Assembly: GCF_051252225.1 (NCBI RefSeq)
Contig: NZ_JBPOGE010000009.1
Location: forward strand, 33,709-97,708
Length of the DNA: 64,000 nucleotides
Reading direction: 5' to 3'
Source of the DNA: Rubritalea sp.
Lineage (GTDB): Bacteria; Verrucomicrobiota; Verrucomicrobiia; Verrucomicrobiales; Akkermansiaceae
In this document: one piece after another, positions 36,322 through 54,230 of the stretch
How the letters are laid out: every line of letters begins with the position of its first letter
Numbering within the stretch: the first letter of the stretch is position 1
Position numbers and translations under genes: made by a program
Notes under the pieces: generated by a model
Databases searched by the model: none
Told to the model about the DNA's origin: nothing
The model's input: the letters and a program-made list of their open reading frames with translations, nothing else

Positions 36322-38541
36322 TTACAGAACAATGTTCACTGCGCAGAACTTATAGCTCGGCTGGCGTGAGTACGGGTCAAAGGACGCCTGAGTGAGCTTG
36401 TTCATCTTAGCGTAGTGCATCGGCATGAAAAGTTGGCCAGGGTAGACGCTTGGAGTAACGCTGGCTGTGACTTCGACTTCGGCTCTGCGGGATTTGATGA
36501 TAATCTTGCTGTTAGGCTCGATGTTGAGTCGCTTGGCGTCGTCTGGATGGATTTCCACGTAGATCTCGCCCGGGTGTAGCATACGCAGCACTTCTGACTT
36601 CTTGGTACGGGTCTCAGTGTGCCACTGGGCTGAGCTGCCGCGCCCAGTTAGGAGCACCCAGGGGTACTCACTATCAGTGGGTTCAGCGACTGGTTTTGGC
36701 TCTTCGAAGATGAACTTTGCCTTTTGGTCTGGGTGGTAGAATTTGCCATCTGCGAATAGACGACGCTGGTTATCCTCAGCGAGACCTGACACTTGGTCGG
36801 GTTTACATGGCCACTGGATTCCGCCGTGGTCATCGACCATACGGTAGCCAGTGACTCCAGAGATATCACATGGTTGCCCTTCAGTGAGCTCGGTGAGCAT
36901 CTTAAAGGCGGCCTCGGGAGATGACCATTTTTTGAAGCGCTCCCCTACTCCCCAATAATGAGAGACGAGTTTGAAAATATTGAAGTCTGATAGTGCTTCG
37001 CCTGGTGCTTCCGCCACTTTTTTTACCAGACCGATACGACGCTCAGAGTTAATGAATACCCCGTCTTTCTCTGCCCAGCCTGCAGCGGGTAAGATGAGAT
37101 CCGCTTGCTGAGCAGTTTCGGTACTGTCGTACATGTCTTGGACGACTAGATAATCGAGCTTCTCCATCGCCTCGCGGTAGCGGTCTTGATGGATCCAAGA
37201 GTGTGAGCCATTCGTAGCAAGCACCCAGAGTCCCTTGATTTTCCCTTCGTGAATGCCTTCGACAATCTGATCGTACGCCATACCGAGCTCAGTAGGGATG
37301 TGTTCTTCTTCGACACCAATAATCTTAGAAACTTTGGCGCGATGCTCAGGGTTGGCGAAATCATGACCACCAAGTAAATTCGTGGTGTTAGAGAATAAGC
37401 GTGAGCCCATCGCATTACACTGACCGGTAATAGAGTTAGCCCCTGTTCCTGGTCTGCCGATATTTCCTGTCATCAGCGCGAGGTTGATAATGGCCTGGGC
37501 GGTACGGACACCTTCATGTGATTGGTTCACGCCCATGGTCCACCAGAAGGAAACGCGCTCACCTCGGTGAATCGTTTCTGCGAGTTTGAGTAATTGCTCA
37601 GGAGTGATGCCAGATTGTTCTTGGACCTGTGTGAGGTCGAAGCCTTTCACGTGCTCTTTGAAGCTCTCGAACTCATTGGTATGTTCGGCGATGAATTTTT
37701 CATCGATCCAGCCCTTCTCGATCAAGAGGTTCGCCAAGCCATAGAAAAAGTAGAGATCGGACTTCGGCAAGATCGGGTAATGCTGAGTTCCGGCAACGGC
37801 TGTTTCAGTCTTACGCGGGTCGATTACCACGATCTCTGGATTGTTCTTATTGCGCTCAATACGCTGCCACATGATCGGGTGCGCGATACATAAGTTAGAG
37901 CCGATAAGAATGATCACATCTGACTCTTCGAAATCTTGATAGGTGTAAGGTGGTGCGTCGAAGCCGAAGCTTTGCTTGTAGGAAACCACAGCGGTCGCCA
38001 TGCACTGACGGGTGTTGCCATCACAGTGGCGTATACCCATGCCAAACTTTGCTAAGGCGCCAAGAAATGCCATTTCCTCTGATACGATCTGACCAGTCGA
38101 TATGAATGCAACTGACTCATCGCCATACTCTTTCTGGATTTTTTTAAAGTTAGAGCAGAACGCGTTCATCGCCTCATCCCAACTAACAGGCTCTAACTGA
38201 CCACCGCGCTGTTTGCGGATCATTGGGTGTGTAGCACGGTCATTCGCCTCGAGTGGCGTGAGAGCTTCCCAGCCTTTTGGACATGCCATACCGAGGTTTA
38301 CTGGGTACTGAGTCGAAGGGGTGAGTGAGACTGCTTTCCCATCTTTTAGGTGCACATTGAGCCCACAGCCAGTAGAGCAGAACCCGCACACGACATTGGT
38401 CGTAGCGTCTGGGACAAGCTTATCTGGTACCTGCCCCAGCCCAAACTTACCTGGTGAGCGAAGAAGCTCAGCCGTCTTCGGCCCTTGCCATTGACGAATG
38501 GGTGGTACGATTTTTTCGAGTGATTTTGGGAGTGTGAGCAT
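36322..38541 (-). CDS. nasA: Assimilatory-type nitrate reductase catalytic subunit (Mo-bisPGD, one 4Fe-4S)
   Basis: CGFCSTGC...[12 protein letters not shown] (Cys ligand), [19 protein letters not shown]...WHT.TRT. No Tat signal. Confidence 0.88.
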
Positions 38542-38542
38542 A

Positions 38543-40240
38543 TCAGTGAGCTTTGTTGATTTCGCCAGGCATCTTAAGAGTGACCACCGCTTGGAAGAAG
38601 ATACTGCGCTCTAACCATTCTCCGATAAGAATAAGTGGTAGGCAGAGTAACGCTGCTGCGGGCTGAGCCAAACCGATGGCTAAACATAGTGAAGCGAGTA
38701 AGAATATGGCCCAACGCACTTTCAGTGTACTGGTAAGTGAGTTCAGCTGAATCAAGGCACTCTTTTTAGCGAAGCTCCAGTCGCTTGATTTCGCTGGTTT
38801 GAGCAATGCAAATTCAGTCAACATCTTGAAAGCTACCGACAGGGTGAAGCCGATTGCTGCGAAGGTGCTAACTGAGCTGTTAAGAATCGATTCTGCAGTC
38901 ACTAAGCCTGCGAAGCCACCGAGCAGTGTGGTTCCGAAGAAGCGAGCGCAGGTCTTAGACATGCTCCAGAAGGCGCGTTTCGTGTCCACGTAGACCATCA
39001 CTGAGCAGAATACGCTGAGAAGACCAAGGACTGCGGAGGAGACACCTGCGCCTGTGGTGATGAACGATGGGATTTCGAAAGTGAGAATTTCAGGGAGGAA
39101 TCCTTGCGCCACTGGGTACCAAAGCAAGGCAGCATAGGCTATCAGTGCCGGCATCCATGCGCTAAAGAGGAGGATTTCGCGACTGAGCCATGAGGTCTTT
39201 AATCCGAGGAAGACGCGCCATGCTCCTAGCGGGCTACCAAGGTGGAGCAAGCTGGAGACGAGTCCAACATTTCCTAACACGACGGCGAGAGCTGAGAGTG
39301 CGAGGGTTACTGTTTGGGAGGAATCAGGAGCTAGAGACTGTACGACGAAACATACGATCGATGCGCCGACAGCAACCTGCGTCAGCATTAGCATCCATAC
39401 GAGCGGCACGTGGTTGTGCGCAGGAGTAAGATCCTTGTCATCTGCAGGATGCATTGCTCCATCAAGATTACGCTTACTGCGGAAATTAGTGGTTGGAAGC
39501 GTGTAATCGGAGCGGAAAGCGCCAGCGACCATGCTGCCGCCTTGCATTGATTTTTCGCGCGACTCCGCCACATTGATCACTTGAATGGAAATAGCTCCGT
39601 TCGGGCAGGATTGTACACATGCAGGGGCTTCACCTTCAGCGAGTCGCTCGTGACACATATCGCATTTTCTAACAATGCCTAGAGCATCATCATATTTAGG
39701 GACATCGTATGGACACTTGAGTGAACAATACTGACAACCGATACATTGGTCATCGAGATGTCTCACAATACCCGTGTCTTCCATTTTCTCGTAAGCTCCC
39801 ACTGGGCAACCATTCAAGCAAGCTGGGTCAGCACAGTGGTGGCAAGCTGAGGTGACGGTCTGCTGTTCTGCCACACCGTCGACTACTCCACGAATCGATC
39901 CTACGTCACGCCAGGATTCTTTATCCTTCAGACCGTTGAGGCTATGACATGCAACAACACAGGCCTTACAGCCGGTGCATTTATCCATGTCTACTTCGAA
40001 AGCGTATTGCTCTCCTGAAGAGGGCTTTTTAATAGGAATGAGATCCTTATAGTATTTCGACTGGATCGGAGTGGTCGCATCTTCATGCTTTTGACTAAAG
40101 CGCTCGACGGCAGATAAACTACGTTGCTCGGTCAGAAGTTGATCAATCAAAGTTATCTCAGCATTAGCCTCTGATAGCTTATCGATTTTTGATGAGTCCA
40201 CCCGATCTAAAACGTGCGCACCCTTATTCATCCCAGTCAT
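38543..40240 (-). CDS. Fusion of DmsB-like 4x[4Fe-4S] ferredoxin and DmsC/NrfD-like membrane anchor
   Basis: CTGCKAC..AC, CHHC..PAC...C, CIGCQYC..KCP, CDMC..PAC..C, then ~8 TM with [11 protein letters not shown]...SWLSRE. Start at 40240 or 40231. Confidence 0.88.
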
Positions 40241-40254
40241 ACTCCTTCTTTTTA

Positions 40255-40271
40255 AGCAAAATGCGTGCCAT
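40255..40271 (-). promoter_or_regulatory. Sigma-54 -24/-12 promoter of the ferredoxin-anchor/nasA operon
   Basis: ATGGCACGCATTTTGCT (GG-N10-GC). Confidence 0.85.
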
Positions 40272-40309
40272 GCACTAATGAAACTCATGAGCCAGAGTAA
40301 TATCTAACT

Positions 40310-40324
40310 GTGAGTTTCGTTCAT
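40310..40324 (-). promoter_or_regulatory. Palindromic T-N11-A box (ATGAAC-GAA-ACTCAC)
   Basis: 10/12 match to RTGAAT-N3-ATTCAY, 38 nt upstream of the sigma-54 17-mer. Confidence 0.55.
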
Positions 40325-42069
40325 CATTTATAGAGAAGAACTAATACGAGTAGCACAAAGAGCGCGCTAGAGGTTATTTTCCAAAAGCGCTCAGGATTAC
40401 GCTCCATGAGCGGTAAATGGCGAGACTCAACATAGAGCGGATTCGGGTCTTTAAGGTCGCGCACGAGCTCGCTCATGCTGGAGTAGCGTGACTCTGCGTG
40501 CACGCTCAGAGCTCGCTTTAGTGCTCCATCTACCCACACTGGCACCATTGGTTTATATTTATAGGCCGGAATGTATTCTAGTAGGCTGAAATCCTTGTAC
40601 GTTTGTGCCTTGGTCCATTTATCTCCATAGGGGCATTTGCCGCCAGTGAGTAGATGGTAAGCAATCATCGCGATGGAGAATTGATCAGACTTCACTCCGA
40701 TAGAAGACTCGATCTCTAGTCTGTATTCGGGTGCGGAGAAGTCGATTGTTCCCAGCGCAGTTGGCTGCTCTATCCCCTGCCCTTTACCGTGAATGCTTTC
40801 AATTTTACAGGATCCGTAATCGATGACAACTGGGCGATCATCAGCGGTGAGCATGATGTTATCTAGCTTCAGATCCTGGTGAATGGTTTCCTTGCGATGG
40901 AGCGCTCGAACACCCGAGACAATCTGTTCGACAATGCGGACAATTTTTAACGTGTCGATATCTCCCTTGTGTGCGTCCATCCACTGAGCAAGCGTCTTCC
41001 CCTTCACCTCCTCCATGAGGTAGTAAAGGAAAGTGGCTTTTTGTGGGCGCTCTACGACCTTAATGAGGTTTTTATGATCCACGCGTCTGCCGATCCATTC
41101 TTCTGCGACAAATCTATCGATGTATGCAGGGTCATCTTGGAAATTCGGCGAAGGCGTCTTCATTACGAAGGCTTCCTTGGTTGAAGTGTCACGCACCCTA
41201 TAGAGTTGGCTTCTTGCGCTCTCAAAGATCACCGACTCGACTTCGAGACCATCGACACTCATACCTGGGTAGAGTAATGGAGGAAATGGGCGTTCACGGA
41301 GAAAGCGCTGAAGCTCTTCCTGATTTGCTCCCGGTACAGCACTAATCTGGACTAGCTGACAGGAGAGGTTGTCGTTACTTCCTGAAAGCAGTGCGGCATT
41401 AACAATTTCTTTGGCGGTAACATCGAGAGATTCGTGACTCTTTATGATATCGAGCATCTGGCTATCACGTAACCATTCGTGGACGCCATCGGTGCTGAGT
41501 AGGAAGAGATCGTTGAGTTCGATGCCAAATTCCTTGAAGTCCACCTTGGGATTCAGATTGAGCCCCATTGCGCGACTTAAATACGTCGTGTTTTTGGAGA
41601 TTTGAGTGCTGTGATCATTGGTGAGCTGCTCGATTTCTCCATTGCGAATACGGTAAATCCGTGTGTCGCCAATATGGAAAATGTGTGCCGTGTTAGAAGT
41701 GAAAATGATAGAGCTATGCGTAGAGAGGTAGCCCTTCTCATTTGCAAGCCCCTCACTGTGCCCCTGACTATAGAGCCATCGATTGAGTGCTGTGAGAATT
41801 CTGTGACCAGAAGTCTTCACTGACCAAGTGTCAGGCGTACTATAATAGTCGGAAAGAAAGCTCTGTACGCACATCTCCGCGGCGAGCTTGCCACCACTTG
41901 CTGCGCTCACCCCATCAGCGATGACGACTGCGATACCTTTCGTGAAGACAGAAGCGGCATCAGGCACATGAATGCCGATGCAGTCTTCGTTTTGTTTTTT
42001 TACTCCCTTGAGGGAGCATTGACCCACTGAGACAGTTAGTGCGTGCTCAGTGGGTAATGTGGTGATCAT
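40324..42069 (-). CDS. PP2C phosphatase - Ser/Thr kinase fusion with C-terminal TM
   Basis: PP2C: IADGV, HIGDTR, STDGV, GSNDN. Kinase: VMK, HQDLKLDN, IDYG, APE. Confidence 0.9.
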   Translation of the reverse strand: MITTLPTEHALTVSVGQCSLKGVKKQNEDCIGIHVPDAASVFTKGIAVVIADGVSAASGGKLAAEMCVQSFLSDYYSTPDTWSVKTSGHRILTALNRWLYSQGHSEGLANEKGYLSTHSSIIFTSNTAHIFHIGDTRIYRIRNGEIEQLTNDHSTQISKNTTYLSRAMGLNLNPKVDFKEFGIELNDLFLLSTDGVHEWLRDSQMLDIIKSHESLDVTAKEIVNAALLSGSNDNLSCQLVQISAVPGANQEELQRFLRERPFPPLLYPGMSVDGLEVESVIFESARSQLYRVRDTSTKEAFVMKTPSPNFQDDPAYIDRFVAEEWIGRRVDHKNLIKVVERPQKATFLYYLMEEVKGKTLAQWMDAHKGDIDTLKIVRIVEQIVSGVRALHRKETIHQDLKLDNIMLTADDRPVVIDYGSCKIESIHGKGQGIEQPTALGTIDFSAPEYRLEIESSIGVKSDQFSIAMIAYHLLTGGKCPYGDKWTKAQTYKDFSLLEYIPAYKYKPMVPVWVDGALKRALSVHAESRYSSMSELVRDLKDPNPLYVESRHLPLMERNPERFWKITSSALFVLLVLVLLYK

Positions 42070-42080
42070 TTAATTTTTAA

Positions 42081-43550
42081 TTAGGAAACTTCGATAAGCT
42101 CCACAGATCCATCAGGCATCACTTCAGCAGTGTGGCCAGCTGGCTCTTCAAGGAAGTATGTGGCGATGAAACCAATGGAGCTAGATGCTGCGATGATCAT
42201 GAAGAAGGTAGAAGCATCGACAAAGGAGAAAATCGTAAGAAATACAACTGCTCCTACATTGCCGTAGGCGCCAGCCATTCCAGCAATCTGACCAGTCATA
42301 CGGCGCTGTACGAGCGGCACCATGGCAAACACTGCGCCTTCGCCGGACTGCACGAAGAATGAGCAGCACATTGTGGCAAGTACGGCGAGCGGTATCGCCC
42401 ATGTGCCGTCAATATGACTCATAGTGAAGTAACCAACTGCTAGACCGACCATGAAAATCATCATGGACTTACGACGACCGAATTTATCTGAAATCAAACC
42501 ACCTGCAGGGCGGGCAATTAAATTCATGAATGCGAAGCCTGACGCGAGGAGGCCAGCTGTCACTGGTGATAGGTCAAATGTTTCCATGAAGAAGAATGGA
42601 AGCATGGAAACTACTGCGAGTTCAGAGCCGAAAGTGACGAAGTAGTTGAGATCGAGAATTGCAACTTGCTTAAATTTGTAGCGGAACATCTCAGGCACCC
42701 CACCCTCTTTGAGCATGGTTTTGTTGACGCGGTAGATTTGACTCACCTGGAAAACGAAGAGTGCTGCTAGGCCGACATAGATCATATTCGTTGTGCTCTG
42801 TGTAAGTAAGCCAACGGAAATCAATTTCCATGCGAGAACTGCAAGAGCTGCATACATAGGTATTGTCATGATGAGGAGGAAGTAGAAGTCACGGCGTGTA
42901 CTTACTTCCATTCCGCCGCTCTTTTTAGGTTTGAAGTAGGTGGCCCCCTTAGGGGTGTCACGCGCAACAATGTAGAAGAAGATCCCGTAAAGGAATGCAA
43001 TCGCTGCGGTACAATAGAGTGAATACCTCCAGCCATTTTCACCACCAAAAATGGTGGCAAGTGTTGGCAAGGTCATCGCTGCAGCGGCTGAACCGAAGTT
43101 ACCCCAACCACCATAAATACCCTCAGCAAGACCGACTTGACGTGCTGGGAACCACTCTCCCACCATGCGGATTCCGATCACAAACCCAGCTCCAACGAAG
43201 CCCATCGCGAAACGCGTAACGGCAAGTTGTTCATAAGTTTGAGCAGATGCAAACAACGCACAGAGCACACCCGATATAATGAGGAGTGTAGAGAAGGTCT
43301 TTCTAGGGCCTAATTTATCTACGAGCATACCCACAATCACACGTGAGGGAATGGTGAGAGCAACGTTTACAATGAGAAGCGCCTTCCATTGCGGTTTAGT
43401 CAGGTTGAATGCTTCTGAAATAACTGCGCCAAGGGGTGCGTGGTTAAACCAGACAACAAATGTAATGAAGAACGCAATCCATGAAACATGGAGAGTGCGT
43501 ATGCTCGGATTCTTTAGATCGAGTACGTTTAACTTATCAGTGGTGTTCAC
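42081..43550 (-). CDS. narK: NarK-family nitrate/nitrite MFS transporter
   Basis: Nitrate-signature [13 protein letters not shown]...[27 protein letters not shown]. Likely GTG start at 43550. Confidence 0.93.
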
Positions 43551-43562
43551 GTTATGGATGAA

Positions 43563-43579
43563 AGCAATACATGTGCCAA
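43563..43579 (-). promoter_or_regulatory. Sigma-54 promoter of narK
   Basis: TTGGCACATGTATTGCT. Confidence 0.85.
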
Positions 43580-43616
43580 AAAGGGTGGTGACGCAAAAAT
43601 GCCAATCATGTCTAAC

Positions 43617-43631
43617 ATGATTGGCATTCAT
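43617..43631 (-). promoter_or_regulatory. Palindromic box ATGAAT-GCC-AATCAT
   Basis: 11/12 match, 37 nt upstream of the sigma-54 17-mer. Confidence 0.7.
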
Positions 43632-43650
43632 TATTTAGCGCTATGAACAC

Positions 43651-44541
43651 TTAGGCAACTACACCCATCGATTTATCAACCAAATCTTGAATTTGTTCTT
43701 TATTGCGGAATCCCATGGTTTCCCCAGCTGAGAAAACGCGAGTCTCCCCTTTGATGTGTGAGCGCTGCTCGAGGAATGCAAGGAGGTGCTCACGGTAAGT
43801 GAAGAACTTCTGATCATTAAAGATTTCCTGTCGGTTACGCGGACGTGGGAAATCAATTTCGAGAATTTCTCCTAACCCAGCCTTAGGGCCATTTGACATC
43901 ATTACACAGCGATCCGCCATAAATACGGCTTCATCAACATCGTGTGTAACAATCATCGCCGTAAGTTTTTCGCGTTCAAGAATATCAATAATGACATCCT
44001 GTAGCTCCATACGAGTCAATGAATCTAGTCGACCAAAAGGCTCATCAAGAAGCAGCACTTTAGGCTGAAGAGCAATCGCTCTCGCTATACCAACACGCTG
44101 CTGCATGCCGCCAGATAGCTCCTTTGGGTATTTCTTCATGGAGTCAGCTAGGCCAACGACAGAAAGTGAATGCTCGACAATCTGCTTCTGAGTAGCCTTA
44201 TTAACGTGTGGATAGACGTTTTTCACTCCAAGCATCACATTAGCGTAGGCTGTCAACCATGGCATCAAGCATGGTGCCTGGAATACCACAGAGCGATCAG
44301 GACCCGGGCCGTCGATCTCCTTATTCCCTACAATGATACCCCCGCCAGAAATCTCATTGAGCCCTGCGAGCATTGTGAGAACCGTGGATTTACCACAACC
44401 AGAGTGACCAATGAGTGAGATGAATTCCCCCTCCTTGATATTTAGGTTGAAGTCTTCAACTACGCGGAAAGGATCACCGTACGGATTCGGGTATTCTTTA
44501 ACGAGATTTGAAATCTCTACAAATTTTAAATTCTCAGACAT
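43651..44541 (-). CDS. nrtD: Nitrate/nitrite-type ABC transporter ATPase (NrtD-like)
   Basis: [30 protein letters not shown]. Confidence 0.88.
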
Positions 44542-44542
44542 A

Positions 44543-45445
44543 TTAGGCTACGTTGTTAGAGTTCTTACTGGAAACAGGGTTTTGCTTGAATGTTGGAGCG
44601 AGCACTGTTGGTGAGAAATTCTTAGGTGTCACCTTAGGCATTGGTATGATATCGGCACTGAGCTTCTTACTCTCTTTATTGAGCCCCATCATGTAGTTGG
44701 TGATCTCAGACTTGAGGCGCATAAATTCTGGATGATCATTCAGTGTGTGGCGGTCACGTGGACGTGCCATGTTCACCTTGAAGTCGTCAGAGAGAGTTGC
44801 CGCTGGCCCCATAGTGAGAGGGACGATGCGATCAGCCATCAGAACGGCTTCGTCCACATCGTTAGTGATCATCACTACTGTACGTTTGTCTTTCTCCCAG
44901 ATATTGAGGATTTGGTCCTGTAGCTCTGATCGAGTGAGGGCGTCTAGTGCTGAGAGCGGCTCGTCAAGCAGCAGAACTTCCGGGTCCAGAGAGAGTGTGC
45001 GTGCAAGCGATGCTCGCTGACGCATGCCGCCTGACAGCTCTTGTGGTTTCTTATCAAATGCGTGATCGAGTTTCACCATTTTCACATAGTGTCGTGCGCG
45101 CTCTTCAAGATCACTCTTGGAGAGTCGAGGGTCCACAGCCCTAATAGCAAGCTTCACATTCTCTACCACCGTCAACCAAGGGAGGAGTGAGTAGTTCTGA
45201 AACATGAGTCCGAGGTCTGGGCCCGGCTCCTTAATGCTCTCCCCTTTGAATCGAACTTCGCCTGTTGAAGGTTTTTCGAGGCCAGAGAGAAGACTCATTA
45301 GTGTACTCTTCCCTGCTCCAGAGAATCCGATGACTGCGACAAACTCATTTTCTTCAACCTTGAGGTTAAGATCCTTGAGGATATCCACCCTGCTGGAGGG
45401 CGGTCCGTAGCTTACTGAAGCGTTATCTATTTCTAAAAATGCCAT
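44543..45445 (-). CDS. nrtC: Nitrate/nitrite-type ABC transporter ATPase (NrtC-like, short form)
   Basis: [32 protein letters not shown]. Confidence 0.88.
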
Positions 45446-45465
45446 AATCTTGGATATTTCTATGA

Positions 45466-47085
45466 TTAAACGCTTACTGCACCGTCGAAGGTAACCATGC
45501 GCTGGAAGACGATCATGATGCGATCAAGAATGAGTCCGATGATGCCCACGAGGAATACGACAACCATCATCTTAGCGAGTGAGTCGGAAGCGCCGTTGTT
45601 GAACTGATCCCACACAAACTTACCAATACCTTCTGATGAGGAGAGGAGTTCCGCAGCGATAAGAACCATCCAGCCGACACCTAGTGAGATACGAAGACCT
45701 GCAAAAATAAGTGGCAGCGCAGACGGAATGACGATCTTGAAAAGACGAGCGAAGAAGCCGAGCTTGAGTACGCGTGCTACGTTCATGTGATCTTTATCGA
45801 TAGACGCTACTCCGAGGGCTGTATTTGCCAAGGTCGCCCAAAGTGAACAGAGAGCCACAGTCACTGCTGAAGCAATGAAGGCTGGATTGATCTTATACTC
45901 ACCGATTAATGGGAGATCCCATAAGAATTCCATAATTGGGTTGTTGTCAGGATCAGGGATGAGACCTGAGACAATGATGAGTGCGATAGGCAACCATACG
46001 ATTGGTGAAACCGGCTTGAAGATGGCGATGAACGGAGTCATGGCAGCCATGAAGGTAGAGTTGAGGCCGCAGAGGATTCCGACTGGAACCGCAATCGCTG
46101 TGCCGATAATAAATCCAGTAAAGACACAGAAAATAGAACGCTTAACCTGGTACCAAATGGTTGCTGGCTTAGCATACTCAGAGTCCTCCATCTTACCTAA
46201 GCGGGATTCAGCTTTAGCAATAGAACGAGCCTTATCATAAGCCGCCTTACCTGTGAGTGTGAGAAACTCAGCATTGGATGCTGTAATCTTCCCTGTAGCG
46301 GACTCCACCTGAATCGCTTTATTGCGATTACTAAGAAGTTCAATTTGCTTCTTAAGGAACTGTTCCTCTTCTGCAGCGAATGTTTGAGTAATGAGGGCGT
46401 CAGCTACTTGTGGGGATTTCATCTCGCGAATCTTATCAATTTCTTTCTTAAGTACAGAGAGCTTCTCTTTATTGGCCTCGCTCTCAGATTCAGCAACCTT
46501 CACCTCACCTTGGTAAGCTGTATAAGCCGCTTGATTACCCGCTGGCAGTGAGTCAGCCTTCACAATGAGTGCCTCCTTTTTAGCGTCTGCTATCTCTTTG
46601 TATTCAACTTTCTTGGCTTTATATTCTGCATCAAGCGGCGCAATGAGCCCTTTAGTCTTTTCGCTCATAGCAGACTTAGCCTGTGTCACCGCTTCGTTCG
46701 CTAGCTTTACACGCTCCTCTACGCCTACAAGTTGCTCTTTCGACTCCTCAAGCATCTGCTCGCGCGCATCACCTGTAAGCTCGTAAGCTTTCATCTTTAG
46801 ATTCTCTCGTTCAGCTTGCTTATCGATGGCGTTGTACCCTTTCCAGGTCTGGGCCGGGTTAGGAAGCGTGCCAGACTTCGTTTGGATCGTTCCTGAGGTG
46901 ACATGCCAGAGGAAGAGGAAGGCTAGCACACCAGCAATGGGGACAAATATCCATTGACCAATCTTCTGGAGCTGGATTTTCGGTTCTTCACCATAACAAA
47001 GCCTCACCACTGGAGCCAGGAATGTGAGGCCACTGAGATCGATGGCTTTTAAGAGTGCGTATTGTAGTTTCTTTAGGAATTTCAT
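45466..47085 (-). CDS. nrtB: Nitrate-type ABC permease with large coiled-coil insertion
   Basis: FKPVSP..WLP, NTA.GV..D..NVARVL EAA loop, [15 protein letters not shown]. Likely start MKFL at 47085 (track start 47154). Confidence 0.88.
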
Positions 47086-47206
47086 AGCGTAAGCAGAAAT
47101 AGTGTTGGCATTGACTAAGCAGGCACTAGACCACCACTTATTAGTTCTGCTCATAACTGAGGTGAATCACTAACATTCACCCCAGAATTCAGCTGGTTCT
47201 ATATGC

Positions 47207-47239
47207 AAAAAAAAGGCCACCTTTTAAAAAGGTGGCCTT
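47207..47239 (-). terminator. Intrinsic terminator between nrtA and nrtB
   Basis: On the - strand AAGGCCACCTTTTT-AAAAGGTGGCCTTTTTTTT. Confidence 0.85.
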
Positions 47240-47270
47240 AATTACAATACTACAGGTATTACTATGAAAA

Positions 47271-48641
47271 TTATGCTTCAGGATCTTTGTTACCGATCTT
47301 GTGGCTATTGAGATATTTGATCGGCTCTTTACCGTCATATTCAACACCATCAATGAAGTCTGTTGTAGGCACTTTGAAGCCATCTGTATCCCAAGGGATA
47401 TCCGCCTTATCGATATTACCTTCTTCTACGAGCATCTTAGCTGCTTCGAGGTAAACTTCAGGAGCATAAACGCTTTTTGCAGTTTCTAGGTACCAATCTT
47501 TAGACTTAGGCTCTGAAATCTGTCCCCAACGACGCATCTGAGTGAGAAACCAGATACCATCAGAGTACCATGGGTAGGTAGCGTTGTTTTTGTAGAATAC
47601 GTTGAAATCTGGCATCTCACGCTTGTCAGTCTTCTGGAAGAAGAAATAGCCAGTCATGGAGTTCTTAATGACATCGTAGTCAGCACCTACATAATTCGGA
47701 CGTGAAAGGATACGTGCAGCTTCTTCGCGGTTTACAAGCTTGCCACTTTCATCGGTCTCATCGAGCCATTTACCAGCACGAATGAGAGCCTTAGTTACAG
47801 CGATGTTAGTTTTTGGATTTTCGTCAGCCCATGCCTTAGATACACCAAATACTTTCTCTGGGTTGTTTTTCCAGATGTCGTAGTTAGTGATTACTGGCAC
47901 ACCGATACCTTTAGCCACAGCTTGCTGATTCCATGGTTCACCCACGCAGTAGCCTTGGATATTACCAGACTCTAGAGTCGCCGGCATCATTGGCGGAGGT
48001 GTTACGGATAGCTCAACTTGAGCGTCGGTACGACCACCTACATCTGACTGCGTATACATACCTGGATGTATATCTGCAGCTGCCAGCCAGTAACGTAGTT
48101 CGTAGTTGTGAGTGGATGTTGGGAAAACCATACCCATTTGAAGCTTCTCACCTTCATCCAACTTCTCAATTACAACTGGCTTCAGAGAATCTGCTGTAAT
48201 AGGGTGTGGAGGGGTGTCTGAATCGAGCTTAGGGTCATTTTCCTGCATCTGCTTCCAGATGTTATTGGATACTGTAATAGCATTACCATTGAGATCCATT
48301 GTGTAGGACGTGACGATGTGCGCCTTAGTACCAAAACCAATTGTCGCTGCAATCGGCTGACCAGAGAGCATATGCGCACCATCTAAATCACCAGAGATTA
48401 CATTATCTAAGAGAGTTTTCCAGTTTGGCTGAGCGACTACATCGACCTGAAGGCCTTCATCATCGAAAAATCCTTTTTCCTTCGCGATTACGAGAGGAGC
48501 GCAATCAGTAAGCTTGATAAAACCAAACTTAAGAGAGTCTTTTTCTACATCGAGCTGCCCAGCGTAAAGAGCAGGTGCTGCCATAACGCTAGCAATAGTG
48601 GCGAGCGTACTAACTTGTTTAATTAACGGGTTCGTTTTCAT
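47271..48641 (-). CDS. nrtA: CmpA/NrtA-family ABC substrate-binding protein
   Basis: [52 protein letters not shown]. Likely start MKTN at 48641. Confidence 0.93.
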
Positions 48642-48663
48642 AATTTGTGAACACCAGCAATCC

Positions 48664-48680
48664 AGCACTACCTGTGCCAA
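48664..48680 (-). promoter_or_regulatory. Sigma-54 promoter of nrtA
   Basis: TTGGCACAGGTAGTGCT. Confidence 0.8.
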
Positions 48681-48717
48681 CCCTCGACACCATAAGGCTT
48701 CGCTATGCATCTAAAAA

Positions 48718-48732
48718 ATGAATCTGATTCAT
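48718..48732. promoter_or_regulatory. Perfect palindromic box ATGAAT-CTG-ATTCAT (candidate LysR site)
   Basis: T-N11-A dyad in the nrtA/lysR divergent region, 37 nt upstream of the nrtA sigma-54 17-mer. Confidence 0.8.
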
Positions 48733-48821
48733 TTCTGCAGATGGTACACATCCTGCTTACATAACATTAATAAATATCCTAGTCTCCCCCGCCTTACACC
48801 TCACACCTAATTTCTCACTCA

Positions 48822-49760
48822 ATGAACTTACCTGAAATACGTCAGCTTAAGATTTTTATAGCTCTAGAAGAAACGCGTTCATTTACTGCAGCGGCCAATA
48901 AGAACTTCATCACGCAATCTGCAGTATCCCACTCTATTAAATCACTAGAGAAGCAGCTAGACTGCAGCCTCATAGAGCGCATGGGTAAACGTATAACCCT
49001 TACCCCATACGGTGAGGTGTTTCTCCATCACGCTAAACGCGTCATTGCTGAACTGGAGTCATCTCTGACTAAAATTGAAACTCTCAAGCACTGGGGTTAC
49101 TCTTCTATTAGGGTAGGTGCTTCAGACACAATCTGCCAGTACATCCTACCTAGTGTTCTTAACACTTTTGCTAGGATGCATCCCAAATGCGAGATTACTG
49201 TTGATCTTGGTGACACATTAGCGATGCAGAAAAAACTGGCGCATGGGCAGCTTGATCTCGCTATTGGTATCCATCTAGCTCCTAGCGACAACAATTTCAT
49301 TTTTACTCCACTCACAGAAGACACGCTTTGCTTTGTAACCTCACCTGATCACGATTGGGTTCAGCGCCAGACTAATAGAGGCGGTTCACTCACAGATGTT
49401 AGACTCATCGCTTACGGTGCTGAAAGTGAGACGATGCGCCTCATTACTAAGCACTTTAGCGAGACCGTCGTGAAATACCGTCACCCGCTTTCCCTGGGGA
49501 ACATGGAAGCTATTAAAGAGATGACAAAAATTGGTCTCGGAGTTGGCATCATCCCCCCTTGGGTCGCCAAGAAGGAATTTGAAAAAGGCGAGTTAGTAGC
49601 CCACACTATATCCTCCCCTCCACCACGACGCAACTGGGGTGTGTTTTCAAATAGCGGAAAAACCTTCTCTCTTCCTGAAGAGGATTTCATTACGATCTGC
49701 CGAGAAGAAATGGAAAAGGCGATCCATACAGGGAGAAAACTAGAAGAAGTGGGAGCGTAA
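48822..49760 (+). CDS. LysR-family transcriptional regulator
   Basis: SFTAAA....TQSAVS..IK.LEKQL...L.ER....TLTP.GE HTH plus substrate-binding domain. Confidence 0.95.
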   Translation: MNLPEIRQLKIFIALEETRSFTAAANKNFITQSAVSHSIKSLEKQLDCSLIERMGKRITLTPYGEVFLHHAKRVIAELESSLTKIETLKHWGYSSIRVGASDTICQYILPSVLNTFARMHPKCEITVDLGDTLAMQKKLAHGQLDLAIGIHLAPSDNNFIFTPLTEDTLCFVTSPDHDWVQRQTNRGGSLTDVRLIAYGAESETMRLITKHFSETVVKYRHPLSLGNMEAIKEMTKIGLGVGIIPPWVAKKEFEKGELVAHTISSPPPRRNWGVFSNSGKTFSLPEEDFITICREEMEKAIHTGRKLEEVGA

Positions 49761-49825
49761 GCTCAGATCGTTAACCAGCTTTTCTAATAGCAGCGCTTTT
49801 CACCTTAGCTTCAATAGATCCTTTT

Positions 49826-49855
49826 AGCTCCATCACACTCTGGTGGAGCTTTTTT
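49826..49855 (+). terminator. Intrinsic terminator after lysR
   Basis: AGCTCCAtCA-CACTC-TGgTGGAGCT-TTTTT. Confidence 0.75.
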
Positions 49856-49892
49856 GTGCCATGCAGTGAGCCCTGAAGTAAACTAAGCATAA

Positions 49893-49907
49893 GTGAATCA
49901 AATTAAT
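49893..49907 (+). promoter_or_regulatory. Palindromic box GTGAAT-CAA-ATTAAT
   Basis: 11/12 match to RTGAAT-N3-ATTCAY, 38 nt upstream of the sigma-54 17-mer. Confidence 0.65.
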
Positions 49908-49945
49908 GTATTGGATTAATTGTACTGGTTGGCACACCTAACATC

Positions 49946-49962
49946 TTGGCACATTCGTTGCT
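49946..49962 (+). promoter_or_regulatory. Sigma-54 promoter of the porin gene
   Basis: TTGGCACATTCGTTGCT. Confidence 0.85.
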
Positions 49963-49976
49963 TGTTGTATGACGTT

Positions 49977-51215
49977 ATGAATAAACGTACATTATTGTCA
50001 TTATTAGCACTCACACAGACAGCAGTAATCGCTGGTGAAGTTCAAGAGATCCCCGTTGTAGAAAAACCGAAAGAAGAGTGGTTTAAGTTCTCCGTCGATG
50101 CTCGTGCTCGTCTTGAGCAGCGCAAGATACAAGGTCTAGATAACTCTTGGGCTGGCACATTCCGTATTCGCCCAGGTTTCTTCGTTGGTAAATCTGAAGG
50201 TTTTGGTGCCTTCGTCGAAACTGAAAGCACTCTTGCTTTCATCGATGATTACGCAAGCGCTCAACCACAACTCAACCCTAATACACCAGGAAACACACGC
50301 ATTGATGATCCTGAGAACAACGAGCTCAATCAGCTTTACGCTCAGTACATCGGCTACGGCGCACTTCTTCGTGGAGGTCGCCAGCGTATCATCTATGATA
50401 ACGCAGCATTTATCGGTAATGTTGGATGGCGTCAGAACGAGCAAACGATGGATGGCGCATTGCTCGACTATAAGAAAGATGCATTCACATTTAAGTATAG
50501 CTACGTAAACCGTGTGAACCGCATATTCGGTGCAGATGCTCTAGGTGCTGCAAGAGCCCTCAAAGGTGCTGCACACTTCGTCAACGGGTCCTACAAGTTT
50601 GGTGAGAATAAGTTTACCGCTTACACCTACCTCATGGATTTTGATGAGTTGTCGTTCTCGCGTGCTAGCAACAACACATATGGTGGCTTCTTCGACTTTG
50701 CTCTTGGCGAAGGATCACTACATACAGAATTTGCCTACCAGACTGAAGCGGGTAACAACGAAGCTGATTACGGTGACTACTACGCTCACGTTTTCTACGG
50801 AGGTAAAGCGAGCATCCTCGACTACAACGTTGGTGTTGAATACCTAGGTGATGAGTTTGTGACTCCCCTCGCTACTGTGCACAAATTTAACGGATTTGCT
50901 GACAGATTTGCTGGCAATCGCCTAGGTTTGGCTCCAGCTGCCGCATGGAATGGCCTTAGTGATGTTTACGCAAGTGCTGGGACAAAAATCGCCGGCGGTG
51001 TGGTACTTACAGGATTCGTACACGCCTTCTGGGATCAGGATTTTGATCAGTTCTACGGATTCGAATTTGATGCTACTGCAGTGAAAAAGTTCAACGATAA
51101 CTTCAAGGCTGTTGCTAAGTACGCCTACTATTTTGGCAATAACGATGATAGTGATTACGTTGCTTTCGAAGACAACATCTCCCAGTTCTCAGTTGAACTG
51201 AACTACACCTTCTAG
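49977..51215 (+). CDS. Outer-membrane beta-barrel (alginate-export/AlgE-like porin)
   Basis: Signal peptide (start MNKR), NELNQLY, RGGRQ....DN..FIGNVGWRQNEQT.DG, C-terminal ELNYTF. Confidence 0.85.
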   Translation: MNKRTLLSLLALTQTAVIAGEVQEIPVVEKPKEEWFKFSVDARARLEQRKIQGLDNSWAGTFRIRPGFFVGKSEGFGAFVETESTLAFIDDYASAQPQLNPNTPGNTRIDDPENNELNQLYAQYIGYGALLRGGRQRIIYDNAAFIGNVGWRQNEQTMDGALLDYKKDAFTFKYSYVNRVNRIFGADALGAARALKGAAHFVNGSYKFGENKFTAYTYLMDFDELSFSRASNNTYGGFFDFALGEGSLHTEFAYQTEAGNNEADYGDYYAHVFYGGKASILDYNVGVEYLGDEFVTPLATVHKFNGFADRFAGNRLGLAPAAAWNGLSDVYASAGTKIAGGVVLTGFVHAFWDQDFDQFYGFEFDATAVKKFNDNFKAVAKYAYYFGNNDDSDYVAFEDNISQFSVELNYTF

Positions 51216-51249
51216 AGGATTCACATAGTTTAGTTATTCAAATCAAATT

Positions 51250-51289
51250 CACCCAATCGATGAATCTCATTCATTGATTGGGTGTTTTT
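51250..51289 (+). terminator. Intrinsic terminator after the porin gene, containing a perfect ATGAAT-CTC-ATTCAT box
   Basis: CACCCAATCGATGAAT-CTC-ATTCATTGATTGGGTG-TTTTT (16-bp stem, one G-U pair). Confidence 0.75.
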
Positions 51290-51306
51290 GTGGCACGCCA
51301 CATGCT
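51290..51306 (+). promoter_or_regulatory. Sigma-54 promoter of nirBD
   Basis: GTGGCACGCCACATGCT. Confidence 0.75.
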
Positions 51307-51340: not shown

Positions 51341-53872
51341 ATGAAAGAAAGAGTAATAGTCGTAGGTAACGGCATGGTCGGATACAAATTCTGTGAACGT
51401 CTCGTAGCTAAAGACGTCGACAAAAAATTCCAAATAGTCACATTCTGCGAAGAGCCACGTCCAGCATATGATCGTGTGCATCTTTCTGAATACTTTTCCG
51501 GTAAAACTGCGGAAGATCTTAGTATGACCCACTTTGATTGGTATGAAGAGAATGGCGTTGAACTTCATATTGGTGAGAAAGTCACCCAGATCGACAAAGC
51601 GGCAAAGCGCGTTATCACATCCTCCGGTAAGGTTGTTGAATACGACAAGCTCATTATGGCTACTGGCTCCTCTCCTTTTGTTCCACCCGTGCCTGGTGTA
51701 GAGAAAAAAGGTGTGTTTGTTTACCGCACGATAGAAGATCTTGATGCAATGCAAGAGTATGCAGCTCATGCTAAATCTTGTGCTGTCATCGGTGGAGGTT
51801 TGCTAGGCCTCGAAGCGGCGAAAGCAGCTCAAGACCTTGGACTCCGTACACATGTAGTTGAGTTTGCACCACGCCTTATGCCAAGACAGCTCGATGAAGC
51901 TGCTGGTATCCTCCTAAAAGACGTTATCGAAGAGCGTGGCATCAAGGTTCACCTCTCTAAATCCACTTCAAATATTGCTGGCGAAGATTCTGTCAAAGGT
52001 ATGGAATTCGCTGACGGCAGCGAACTAAAGGTCGATATGATCATTGTTTCTGCAGGAATTCGTCCACGTGACGAACTGGCAAGTGAAGCTGGAATCACCG
52101 TCGGTCCTCGTGGTGGTATCGAAGTCGATAGTTACCTACTTACTAGCGACCCTAATATTTTCGCAATTGGTGAATGCGCGCTCTATGAAGGCATGATTTA
52201 TGGTCTTGTTGCTCCTGGCTACCAGATGGCTGATGCAGTGAGTGATCTTCTACTAGGCAAAGAAGCTACCTTCACCGGTGCTGATATGTCCACCAAGCTC
52301 AAACTTATTGGTACTGATGTTGCTAGCTTTGGTGCTATCGAAGTACCAGAAGGCTCTGGAGCTCGTGAGATTGTTATTAATGACACGCACAACAAACTCT
52401 TCAAGAAGCTCGTTGTCTCCGCAGACGGCAAAAAACTCCTAGGTGGTATTCTGGTAGGTGATGCAAGTGCCTATGGCTCACTTCACCAAATGTACCTCAA
52501 TGATATGGAGATTAAAGGTGACCCTATCCAACTCATTCTCCCATCTTCCGATGGCGAACCAGTAGGTGTTGGGGTTGGTGATCTTCCTGATTCAGCACAG
52601 ATTTGCTCCTGTGAAGCAGTCACTAAAGGTGAGATCTGTAGTGCTATCGAAAACGGATGTTCTTCTGTAGGTGAACTTAAATCCTGTACTAAAGCAGGAA
52701 CTGGTTGCGGTGGTTGTGTGCCACTTATGACTGATCTCTTTAAAGCAAAAATGAGAGAGTCTGGCGTGGAAGTCAGTGATCGTATTTGTGAGCACTTCGA
52801 TCATTCCCGTAAAGAAATCTATCAAATCGTCCGCGCTACCGGCATCCAGAATTTCAACGAACTCCTAGCCAAGCACGGGAAAGGAATGGGTTGTGAAATT
52901 TGTAAGCCTGTTGCCGCATCCGTCTTCGCATCTTGCTGGAACGTTCCTATCCTTGATAAGGCTCCGCTTCAGGACACCAATGACGCATTTCTCGCAAACA
53001 TTCAGCAGGATGGTACATATTCCGTCATTCCTCGTATCCCTGGTGGTGAAATCACCCCGGACAGTCTCATTGTAATCGGTGAAGTCGCTAAAAAGTATAA
53101 CCTCTACATGAAGCTCACTGGTGGTCAGCGTATTGACCTTCTCGGCGCCCGCGCTCATCAGCTTCCAGCTATCTGGAAAGACCTTATCGATGCGGGCTTC
53201 GAATCCGGTCATGCCTACGGCAAAGCTCTTCGTACGGTAAAATCCTGTGTAGGATCTTCTTGGTGTCGCTTCGGCGTTCAGGATTCCACCACTCTCGCTA
53301 TCGACATCGAAAAGCGCTACCGCGGTATTCGCTCACCTCACAAACTTAAATCAGCAGTATCTGGTTGTGTTCGCGAGTGCGCTGAAGCTCAGTCCAAGGA
53401 TTTCGGTATCATTGCTACGGAAAAAGGCTGGAACCTCTACGTTTGTGGTAATGGCGGTATCGTGCCACGTCACGCTGACCTCTTCGCAACAGACCTCGAC
53501 CGCGAAACTCTCATTAAGTACATCGATCGTTTCCTCATGTACTACATCAAGACCGCTGACAGACTCGAGCGCACATCCACATGGATGACTAAGCTCGAAG
53601 GTGGTCTCGAGCACCTTCAGGATGTAGTAATTAAAGACTCACTTGGTATCTGTGAGGAACTAGAAGCGCAAATGAATCACCTCGTCGACACTTACGAATG
53701 TGAGTGGAAAAACGCAATCAATGACCCAGAGAAAATGAAGCGCTTCAAGCACTTCCAGAACTCTGAGGACGAGGACGAGACTGTAGAATTTGTCGACCTT
53801 CGTGGACAAATCTGCCCTGCACGCCTCAATGAATCAGATGAAAAAGAATCGGGTGAACTCGCTAATGCATAA
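51341..53872 (+). CDS. nirB: NADH-dependent nitrite reductase large subunit
   Basis: GNGMVG, GGGLLGLEAA, two BFD Cys clusters, VKSCVG..WCRFG, SGC.RECAE sirohaem motifs. Likely start MKER at 51341. Confidence 0.97.
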   Translation: MKERVIVVGNGMVGYKFCERLVAKDVDKKFQIVTFCEEPRPAYDRVHLSEYFSGKTAEDLSMTHFDWYEENGVELHIGEKVTQIDKAAKRVITSSGKVVEYDKLIMATGSSPFVPPVPGVEKKGVFVYRTIEDLDAMQEYAAHAKSCAVIGGGLLGLEAAKAAQDLGLRTHVVEFAPRLMPRQLDEAAGILLKDVIEERGIKVHLSKSTSNIAGEDSVKGMEFADGSELKVDMIIVSAGIRPRDELASEAGITVGPRGGIEVDSYLLTSDPNIFAIGECALYEGMIYGLVAPGYQMADAVSDLLLGKEATFTGADMSTKLKLIGTDVASFGAIEVPEGSGAREIVINDTHNKLFKKLVVSADGKKLLGGILVGDASAYGSLHQMYLNDMEIKGDPIQLILPSSDGEPVGVGVGDLPDSAQICSCEAVTKGEICSAIENGCSSVGELKSCTKAGTGCGGCVPLMTDLFKAKMRESGVEVSDRICEHFDHSRKEIYQIVRATGIQNFNELLAKHGKGMGCEICKPVAASVFASCWNVPILDKAPLQDTNDAFLANIQQDGTYSVIPRIPGGEITPDSLIVIGEVAKKYNLYMKLTGGQRIDLLGARAHQLPAIWKDLIDAGFESGHAYGKALRTVKSCVGSSWCRFGVQDSTTLAIDIEKRYRGIRSPHKLKSAVSGCVRECAEAQSKDFGIIATEKGWNLYVCGNGGIVPRHADLFATDLDRETLIKYIDRFLMYYIKTADRLERTSTWMTKLEGGLEHLQDVVIKDSLGICEELEAQMNHLVDTYECEWKNAINDPEKMKRFKHFQNSEDEDETVEFVDLRGQICPARLNESDEKESGELANA

Positions 53873-53894
53873 CATTTAACACATAGAAATTATT

Positions 53895-54230
53895 ATGATT
53901 ACAGAATCAACACAGATCAATGTAGGGGCCGTTTCTAACTTCCCACAAGATCTCGGCAGCTGTGTAAAAATTAACGGAAAACAAATCGCAGTCTTCAATC
54001 TACCTACTGAACAAAAGTGGTATGCCGTTCAGAACTTTAATCCACAAAACCAACGCATGGTGCTTTCACGTGGTCTCACTGGTGATGCGGATGGCGAGCC
54101 AATCGTCATCTGTCCACTTCACAAGCACCGTTATTCATTAGTTACTGGTGAGTGCCTTACTGATAGCGCATATAGCCTCGAAACTTTCCCTATCAAGGAA
54201 GTCGACGGCGAGCTTCTCATAGAAGCCTAG
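53895..54230 (+). CDS. nirD: Nitrite reductase small subunit (Rieske-like)
   Basis: QIAVF, LSRGL.GD, ICPLHK..YSL.TG.C. Confidence 0.93.
   Translation: MITESTQINVGAVSNFPQDLGSCVKINGKQIAVFNLPTEQKWYAVQNFNPQNQRMVLSRGLTGDADGEPIVICPLHKHRYSLVTGECLTDSAYSLETFPIKEVDGELLIEA

Follow-up and report, generated by a model that had tools for sequence, protein, structure and literature searches.

How does a LysR-type regulator come to stand among promoters of the sigma-54 class? The question is raised by a nitrate-assimilation island in 64,000 nucleotides of DNA from a marine Rubritalea (hereafter the window; contig C9:33709-97708 of a 3.5-Mb, 45-contig genome), in which genes for a nitrate reductase with its ferredoxin-membrane anchor (FeS-anchor/nasA), a nitrate/nitrite transporter (narK), an ABC nitrate transporter (nrtABCD), a porin and a nitrite reductase (nirBD) surround a single LysR gene. 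Sigma-54 promoters are usually viewed as being switched on by distant AAA+ bacterial enhancer-binding proteins (bEBPs) alone, and LysR-type transcriptional regulators (LTTRs) as activators of sigma-70 promoters. Here a position-fixed operator of the LysR-tetramer type lies on each sigma-54 promoter of one pathway, and two normally separate systems are thereby paired. The explanation which we favour, at a confidence a little above even, is that a tetramer of the island LysR would act as pathway-specific co-regulator at these sigma-54 promoters, with the ATPase provided by a bEBP that has no local enhancer. A preliminary description of this DNA had proposed co-regulation of nitrate assimilation by LysR and sigma-54. 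The core of that proposal is backed by sequence comparison (a MetR-type operator and helix, conservation, and co-occurrence), while its details have changed to six promoters with further members outside the island, a double dyad at -72/-50, and bEBPs encoded elsewhere.

A pattern scan of the island gave five elements of the type TGGCAC-N5-TTGCW, with GG and GC exactly 10 nt apart. These are the five that had been described earlier, and all lie where they were said to and are near consensus; a sixth, weaker one upstream of lysR had been missed. The elements, with transcription start sites (TSSs) predicted from sigma-54 geometry, are:

40255..40270, minus strand: element TGGCACGCATTTTGCT of the FeS-anchor/nasA operon, predicted TSS ~40244; conserved in relatives
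43563..43578, minus strand: element TGGCACATGTATTGCT of narK, predicted TSS ~43552
48664..48679, minus strand: element TGGCACAGGTAGTGCT of nrtA, predicted TSS ~48653
48742..48757, plus strand: weaker sixth sigma-54-type element TGGTACACATCCTGCT of lysR, 65 nt upstream of the LysR start, predicted TSS ~48768
49947..49962, plus strand: element TGGCACATTCGTTGCT of the porin gene, predicted TSS ~49973, 4 nt ahead of the ATG
51291..51306, plus strand: element TGGCACGCCACATGCT of nirBD, predicted TSS ~51317

The looser pattern TGGYAY-N6-TGCW has nine matches in the window against 1.19 expected, a number reached in none of 100 shuffles. When the region between lysR and nrtA was aligned across seven Rubritalea species, conservation was concentrated in the -24/-12 element of nrtA, a GATG half-site, a dyad (see below) and TGGTAC-N6-TGCT. 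The last, as TGGTAY-N6-TGCT (TGGCAT in L010), precedes lysR in 11 of 11 relatives, and the dyad is found 43-46 bp from the predicted lysR TSS in nine of these 11. Since the element upstream of lysR is kept in relatives, the LysR gene is itself predicted to be sigma-54 dependent, which makes six island promoters.

The distances from element to start codon are conserved across genera, the start codons lying 11-37 nt after the 16-mer. In the window and in relatives L001-L011 the start follows the 16-nt element by 11-12 nt in narK (GTG or ATG), 14-15 nt in the porin gene, 11-14 nt in the FeS-anchor gene and 22 nt in nrtA. The GTG start of narK in the window (43550) is at +2/+3 relative to its predicted TSS, and the FeS-anchor gene starts at ATG 40240 rather than at 40288, the longer open reading frame (ORF) call being one that would enclose the sigma-54 element. 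Given these short distances and the sigma-54 geometry, leaderless mRNAs or mRNAs with leaders of 1-12 nt, devoid of a Shine-Dalgarno sequence, are predicted for narK, porin, FeS-anchor and nrtA. At least one further sigma-54 promoter of the genome, at C5:219419, also has a gap of ~12 nt.

The second component of these promoters is a 15-bp dyad with the consensus ATGAA-N5-TTCAT, which contains the T-N11-A of LysR operators. Its occurrences, with centres counted from the predicted TSS, are:

40310..40324, minus strand: distal dyad ATGAACGAAACTCAC of the FeS-anchor/nasA promoter, centre -73, overlapping the kinase stop codon
43595..43609, minus strand: proximal degenerate dyad ATGATTGGCATTTTT of the narK promoter, centre -50
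43617..43631, minus strand: distal dyad ATGAATGCCAATCAT of the narK promoter, centre -72
48696..48710, minus strand: proximal dyad position ATGCATAGCGAAGCC of the nrtA promoter, centre -50; the ATG half-site alone is conserved
48718..48732, unstranded: perfect dyad ATGAATCTGATTCAT common to the divergent promoters, at -72 of P_nrtA and -43 of P_lysR
49893..49907, plus strand: distal dyad GTGAATCAAATTAAT of the porin promoter, centre -73
51238..51252, plus strand: distal dyad TCAAATCAAATTCAC of the nirB promoter, centre -72; the right half alone is conserved
51260..51274, plus strand: perfect proximal dyad ATGAATCTCATTCAT of the nirB promoter, centre -50

The fixed distance between dyad and sigma-54 element noted earlier is borne out, the distal centres of the five promoters first recognized being at -73, -72, -72, -73 and -72. 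By our own estimate a dyad with three or fewer mismatches would occur at any one fixed position with a chance of ~4e-4. The site that had been called weak at nirB does exist (the distal one, at -72), but the perfect proximal dyad at -50 had been overlooked; it is conserved in eight relatives, and in these genomes the strong nirB dyad is always at -50/-49.

The window and 11 related loci together provided 38 promoters with a dyad, among which the primary sites fall into classes centred at -73/-72 (19), -63/-62 (4), -50/-49 (11) and -40 (1). Second half-sites were assessed by column counts, an earlier search with a position weight matrix having been dominated by self-overlap at +/-13. In the -72 class (19 non-identical promoters from 12 genomes) a second ATG is present exactly 22 bp downstream (A in 17/19, T in 19/19, G in 15/19), and in the 11 promoters of the -50 class the TCA of the dyad has a counterpart exactly 22 bp upstream (10/11, 11/11 and 11/11). 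From the column counts the -72 and -50 classes are one structure: the full operator is [ATGAA-N5-TTCAT]-N7-[ATGAA-N5-TTCAT], 37 bp in length, its two centres 22 bp apart near -72/-50. Any one promoter conserves three half-sites out of the four, either 1-3 or 2-4. The earlier identification of the dyad as a LysR-type T-N11-A operator is supported by the paired second site 22 bp away and by the MetR-like layout.

The divergence of lysR from nrtA around a perfect dyad, another early observation, is seen in the window, and a dyad separates lysR from a divergent nrtA or narK in 11 of 11 relatives as well. Comparison of orthologous upstream regions, which had been put forward as a check, revealed that the composite of dyad and sigma-54 element is conserved beside the LysR orthologue in Rubritalea, Oceaniferula and other Verrucomicrobiales. 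Two of the operators coincide with hairpins. At nirB the proximal dyad is the upper part of the hairpin that terminates the porin gene (51250-51284), and the two narK dyads make up the stem of the nrtD terminator (43598-43628). In relatives the flanking stem of the terminator shows compensatory substitutions and the ATGAA..TTCAT apex is unchanged; one element appears to double as RNA terminator and DNA operator.

The island LysR is a 312-amino acid protein with HTH_1 (PF00126, 2.6e-21) and LysR_substrate (PF03466, 6.5e-39) domains. Relatives of it, 81-94% identical, are found in Rubritalea spongiae, R. marina, R. tangerina and R. profundi (Verrucomicrobiales), which disposes of an initial assumption that the DNA came from a gammaproteobacterium with NtrC/NasR control. 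Its full-length relatives in the PDB are CbbR/CmpR-like proteins, OxyR, BenM and NtcB (63 bits), the CbbR/CmpR-like proteins scoring above NtcB. The recognition helix is MetR-like (TQSAVSHSIKSLE). When E. coli MetR, taken from the annotated genome, was aligned with all six LTTRs of the present genome, a TQSA(L/V)SH helix proved common to the island LysR (TQSAVSHS in ITQSAVSHSIKSLE), E. coli MetR (TQSALSHQ in QTQSALSHQFSDLE) and a Rubritalea MetR orthologue (TQSALSHS in LTQSALSHSMSKLE); the other four LTTRs carry Q, R or G at the position of the helix His. The island protein is not itself the MetR orthologue, as it scores 77 bits with NCBIfam NF011950 against a cut-off of 382. That orthologue is encoded separately at C4:189721-190611 (MetR is its best NCBIfam match, 197 bits), and a DUF1852/metE-like operon is transcribed away from it, the interval (C4:189630-189720) containing a site of its own, ATGAGCAATGCTCAT.

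The MetR operator of E. coli and Salmonella pairs two 15-bp repeats of ATGAA-N5-TTCAT, at -63 and -41 of metE and thus with a spacing of 22 bp; conservation is higher in the distal repeat (PMC5002191). The likeness of the island to the metE/metR system thus extends to operator sequence, 22-bp pairing, divergent regulator gene and TQSA(L/V)SH helix; the differences are that MetR serves another pathway and acts at a sigma-70 promoter from -63/-41, whereas the island sites, at -72/-50, belong to sigma-54 promoters. The same 15+7+15 layout is known from OxyR, which recognizes ATAG-N7-CTAT, N7, ATAG-N7-CTAT and contacts four successive major grooves. OxyR, one of the PDB relatives of the island LysR, differs in half-site sequence, signal and sigma factor. 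We would expect the island LysR to bind the 37-bp operator as a tetramer (dimer of dimers), in the same way as MetR and OxyR, and the dyad shared by nrtA and lysR, at -43 of P_lysR, would permit LysR autoregulation.

It could be argued at this point that the association has no regulatory meaning: the GG/GC elements might be non-functional, or the dyads might be MetR sites or by-products of terminators. Two dyads do belong to terminator hairpins and a MetR orthologue recognizing the same motif is present in the genome. Yet there are six elements in 11 kb, each just upstream of a start codon and conserved across genera despite the drift of the flanks; a scan for sigma-70-like promoters gave six matches against 15.7 expected in shuffles and hence no enrichment; and MetR already has a site and a divergent metE-like operon of its own. 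We consider this explanation highly improbable.

The motif also occurs outside the island. Genome-wide, six of 12 perfect ATGAA-N5-TTCAT dyads lie no more than 90 nt upstream of a sigma-54 element, against a chance expectation that we estimate at ~1e-3 per dyad. Four of these perfect dyads are outside the island, ahead of glnII, amtB, the gene for an outer-membrane protein of a urea cluster, and a small ORF on C1. In addition, an operon encoding an FNT-family transporter and cyanase (cynS), at C3:14270-16313, has a sigma-54 promoter with a one-mismatch dyad, ATTAATAAAATTCAT, at -72, and uptake of cyanate or nitrite probably belongs to the same regulon. Consensus sigma-54 elements are also found ahead of dnaK and of several genes for PEP-CTERM-anchored proteins (C6:137975, C7:4427, C16:23627 and C17:7226), none of them with a dyad.

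If the dyad is the site of LysR, the two should occur together. In the 25 Rubritalea genomes of the genus, 17 with and 8 without LysR, we searched for the composite TGAA-N5-TTCA, 10-40 nt, TGGCAY-N6-TGC, the reversed pattern being used as control. The composite is present in 13/17 genomes with LysR versus 1/8 of those lacking it, and the control in 0/25. The lone LysR-negative genome concerned is a metagenome-assembled genome, 70% complete, whose two matches are nasA- and nirB-type promoters. Composites outside the island, for example at amtB, are confined to genomes with LysR. No nirB was found in the LysR-negative genomes, and hence among these there is no island without the regulator.

These data bear directly on the possibility that the dyad is the enhancer, or upstream activating sequence (UAS), of a bEBP with a helix-turn-helix (HTH), for instance the bEBP2 listed below, acting with its kinase as nitrogen regulator, LysR binding elsewhere or having a minor role. 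The dyads at the amtB, glnII, urea-cluster and cyanase promoters resemble an NtrC regulon, the palindrome is of odd length like NtrC sites, a hexamer could assemble on tandem sites, and the HTH_8 of bEBP2 is intact. Enhancers of bEBPs, however, are usually 80-150 bp or more upstream and, through looping, largely independent of position. The dyad centres are fixed at -73/-72, -63/-62, -50/-49 and -40, unlike enhancers, and the -50 and -40 sites are too near for looping. Sequence and 15+7+15 layout are moreover those of the MetR operator. Nor does the composite track the presence of bEBPs. Orthologues of bEBP1 and bEBP2 occur in 16/16 Rubritalea genomes searched for them, including all five of the eight LysR-negative genomes so searched, in none of which the composite occurs. 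Where amtB could be recovered from LysR-negative genomes, its sigma-54 promoter is retained and the dyad is missing. That the dyad is not kept at these amtB promoters despite the bEBPs argues against its being a general NtrC-like enhancer, and we regard an enhancer role as distinctly unlikely.

A LysR co-regulator could nevertheless not act alone, because sigma-54 holoenzyme needs an AAA+ ATPase to form the open complex; the ATPase must come from a bEBP encoded elsewhere. It had been noted that the window lacks an NtrC-like gene. This is true of the window, but the genome does contain rpoN (PF04552 at C10:9114), and a search of it for bEBPs, suggested in the same description, gave four full-length proteins (PF00158), all outside the window:

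C3:19242-20597: bEBP1, best match NtrC; orphan response regulator
C9:18006-19430: bEBP2, paired with a PAS histidine kinase; intact HTH_8
C10:31377-32729: bEBP3, similar to PEP-CTERM-box regulators
bEBP4: RtcR-like, judging from its N-terminal region and 532-amino acid length

No match to ANTAR (PF03861) was obtained in the genome, and control genomes gave no match either. Leaders of the predicted length, 1-25 nt, would be too short for a terminator/antiterminator.

The bEBP1 gene adjoins uppS in the present genome and in four other families inspected. The protein ends in '...AAQLLGMKSIS*' and has no HTH_8 match. Its orthologues in 13 other Rubritalea genomes are likewise truncated, in the clade of the present genome, or have, in other clades, acidic or neutral 'recognition helices' (e.g. 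AAKKLNISVVELEGLL), whereas those of two other Verrucomicrobiales families are intact, with a basic helix (LGMTRATFKKRIEKY) and an HTH_8 match. A frameshift or assembly artefact was considered, as the +1 frame gives an HTH-like 'RVFLKTIKR', but was rejected since all 13 orthologues are truncated or non-basic; the loss of the HTH thus characterizes the lineage.

The lack of an HTH fits activation that needs no dedicated enhancer, for which CtcC, FlgR, and NtrC at PatzR are precedents. Chlamydia CtcC and Helicobacter FlgR resemble Rubritalea bEBP1 in lacking a DNA-binding domain, but their hosts have one small sigma-54 regulon whereas Rubritalea has four bEBPs and several regulons; specificity would consequently have to come from elsewhere than bEBP1. 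It is tempting, though doubtful, to go further and suppose that in Rubritalea the function of an enhancer-binding protein has been split, an NtrC-like activator without an HTH being served by a LysR tetramer at fixed, helix-phased positions (-72/-50) that has taken over tethering and promoter selection, so that an LTTR would be a direct positive co-activator of largely leaderless transcripts.

Among the 300 nt upstream of 12 nitrogen-related sigma-54 promoters, ATGAA-N5-TTCAT is the sole common inverted repeat (6/12 against a shuffle maximum of 2), and no second conserved motif such as an NtrC-type UAS or distant enhancer was found there. The 115 bp between the lysR and nrtA TSSs in the seven-species alignment likewise hold no second conserved element. 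These results weigh against the second option of the preliminary description, that LysR is purely an architectural protein under ligand control, a substitute for IHF, which bends the DNA between the promoter and a far-off enhancer concealed in adjacent coding sequence. The operator does fill the region from -80 to -42 where IHF sites are located in many sigma-54 promoters, and LTTRs bend DNA to an extent that alters on ligand binding; but besides the missing second motif the upstream flanks differ from promoter to promoter, being coding sequence, terminators or the lysR promoter. We judge the architectural role to be very unlikely.

Returning to LysR as co-regulator, the mechanism would be as follows. 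LysR would supply pathway-specific control, its presumed ligand being nitrate, nitrite or a related metabolite. The ATPase would come from one of the four bEBPs, probably conveying a signal of nitrogen limitation. This activator probably works without an enhancer of its own, given that there is no second conserved upstream element and that bEBP1 has lost its HTH in the genus. LysR might stabilize or bend the closed complex, or keep the activator nearby. The sequences show the elements, where they lie, their conservation and their co-occurrence with LysR; the binding of LysR, the sign of regulation, the ligand and the part played by a bEBP are inferred.

As regards the sign, the fixed positions, in steps of ~10-13 bp and clear of the -24 element, suggest that LysR acts positively. 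The opposite view is that LysR, bound to the double dyad, chiefly represses or counteracts activation until nitrate or nitrite lifts the block, in the manner of NAC and AtzR at their own sigma-54 promoters, with a bEBP responsible for all activation. The effects of LTTRs known at sigma-54 promoters are negative, and the dyads at -43 of P_lysR and -41 of glnII abut the -24 element. At the target promoters, on the other hand, the operators end near -43 and do not overlap -24/-12, and their positions are kept within 1 bp at -72, -62, -50 and -40, as expected of an activator facing RNA polymerase. Repression as the main role seems unlikely to us.

Several points weigh against a LysR co-regulator. 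No LTTR is known to activate a sigma-54 promoter, and where contacts between the two systems are known, namely those of NAC with Pnac and of AtzR with PatzR, they serve repression. A search for transcript evidence turned up no RNA runs covering the locus. Three dyads do not keep the register of the island class, those of amtB (-67), of glnII (-41) and of the outer-membrane protein gene in the urea cluster (-58); that of amtB, examined as a possible genus-wide feature, is confined among the genomes examined to the present one and its closest relative. With a MetR orthologue of the same helix in the genome, specificity between the two regulators and the avoidance of cross-talk call for a separate explanation. 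Lastly, in G011, a genome from another family of the order (L016 and L017), the composite stands ahead of glnK-amtB and urtB, and the best LysR match is only 29% identical; a third composite precedes an NMT1-like gene in a formamidase/amide-transport cluster, where the adjoining LTTR is only 27% identical and has an SPSAISHS helix. Related LTTRs may control wider nitrogen regulons in other Verrucomicrobiales, and that of Rubritalea may belong to such a group.

Four systems combine some of the same parts, the first two also resembling the predicted mechanism in function. In the cyanobacterial nirA-nrtABCD-narB operon NtcB is a nitrate/nitrite-specific LTTR that acts from a position upstream of the global nitrogen activator NtcA and in concert with it; there the promoter is of sigma-70 type and the global partner belongs to the CRP family, whereas the partner in the island must be an AAA+ bEBP. 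In Klebsiella the nac gene is transcribed from a sigma-54 promoter activated by NtrC and has an adjoining LTTR site, like lysR here, but NAC acts as a coupler on sigma-70 promoters while the targets of the island LTTR are themselves sigma-54 promoters. At PatzR of Pseudomonas sp. ADP the LTTR site also adjoins a sigma-54 promoter, which NtrC activates without a specific enhancer; AtzR, however, only represses PatzR, and the promoter that it activates, PatzDEF, depends on sigma-70. Klebsiella nasF shares with the island sigma-54 nitrate assimilation under dual control by nitrogen status (NtrC enhancer) and nitrate (NasR antitermination), a mechanism for which the predicted island leaders have no room.

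Full-text literature searches yielded no LTTR acting positively on sigma-54 promoters and nothing on nitrate regulation in Verrucomicrobia; in a 2025 survey of sigma-54 regulons there is no mention of LysR or of leaderless transcripts. If functional, the arrangement would provide a short-range route to ligand-specific control of sigma-54 transcription, possibly a means of guiding an activator that lacks a DNA-binding domain, and a first picture of nitrogen regulation in Verrucomicrobia. With six promoters, one regulator and cultured relatives (R. marina, R. spongiae, R. tangerina and R. profundi) it is a small and tractable system.

The genes of the island are:

36322..38541, minus strand: nasA, assimilatory molybdopterin nitrate reductase (Pfam Molybdopterin, Molydop_binding, Molybdop_Fe4S4)
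38543..40240, minus strand: 4Fe-4S ferredoxin fused to a DmsC-like membrane anchor (Pfam Fer4_11 and DmsC)
40324..42069, minus strand: PP2C phosphatase/Ser/Thr kinase fusion (Pfam PP2C_2 and Pkinase)
42081..43550, minus strand: narK-type MFS nitrate/nitrite transporter (Pfam MFS_1), start position conserved in relatives
43651..47154, minus strand: nrtD, nrtC and nrtB, two ABC ATPases and a permease (ORFs and translations; Pfam BPD_transp_1 covered the permease only, the ATPases being read from translations)
47271..48641, minus strand: nrtA, periplasmic nitrate-binding protein (Pfam NMT1_2)
48822..49760, plus strand: LysR-type regulator (Pfam HTH_1 and LysR_substrate)
49977..51215, plus strand: outer-membrane porin of the Alginate_exp family (Pfam), signal peptide visible in the translation
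51341..54230, plus strand: nirB and nirD, NAD(P)H nitrite reductase (Pfam Pyr_redox_2, NIR_SIR, Fer2_BFD; Rieske_2)

Hairpins resembling terminators are found 3' of nrtD, nrtA (47239-47213), lysR (49826-50) and the porin gene (51250-84). Promoters and hairpins together therefore predict six transcription units: FeS-anchor with nasA; narK with the PP2C/kinase gene, which is predicted to be co-transcribed with it; nrtA, with read-through into nrtBCD; lysR; the porin gene; and nirBD. The PP2C/kinase protein has a C-terminal hydrophobic stretch in its translation, which we read as a membrane helix, and may be a post-translational signalling module for nitrate or nitrite; the nas cluster of P. aeruginosa reportedly also contains a kinase gene. 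At 47160-47180 (minus strand), 8 nt ahead of the nrtB ATG (47154) and 3' of the nrtA terminator, there is an inverted repeat, GGTGAAT-gttagtG-ATTCACC, in which the half-sites of the dyad are spaced by N7 rather than N3 and which is not accompanied by a sigma-54 element.

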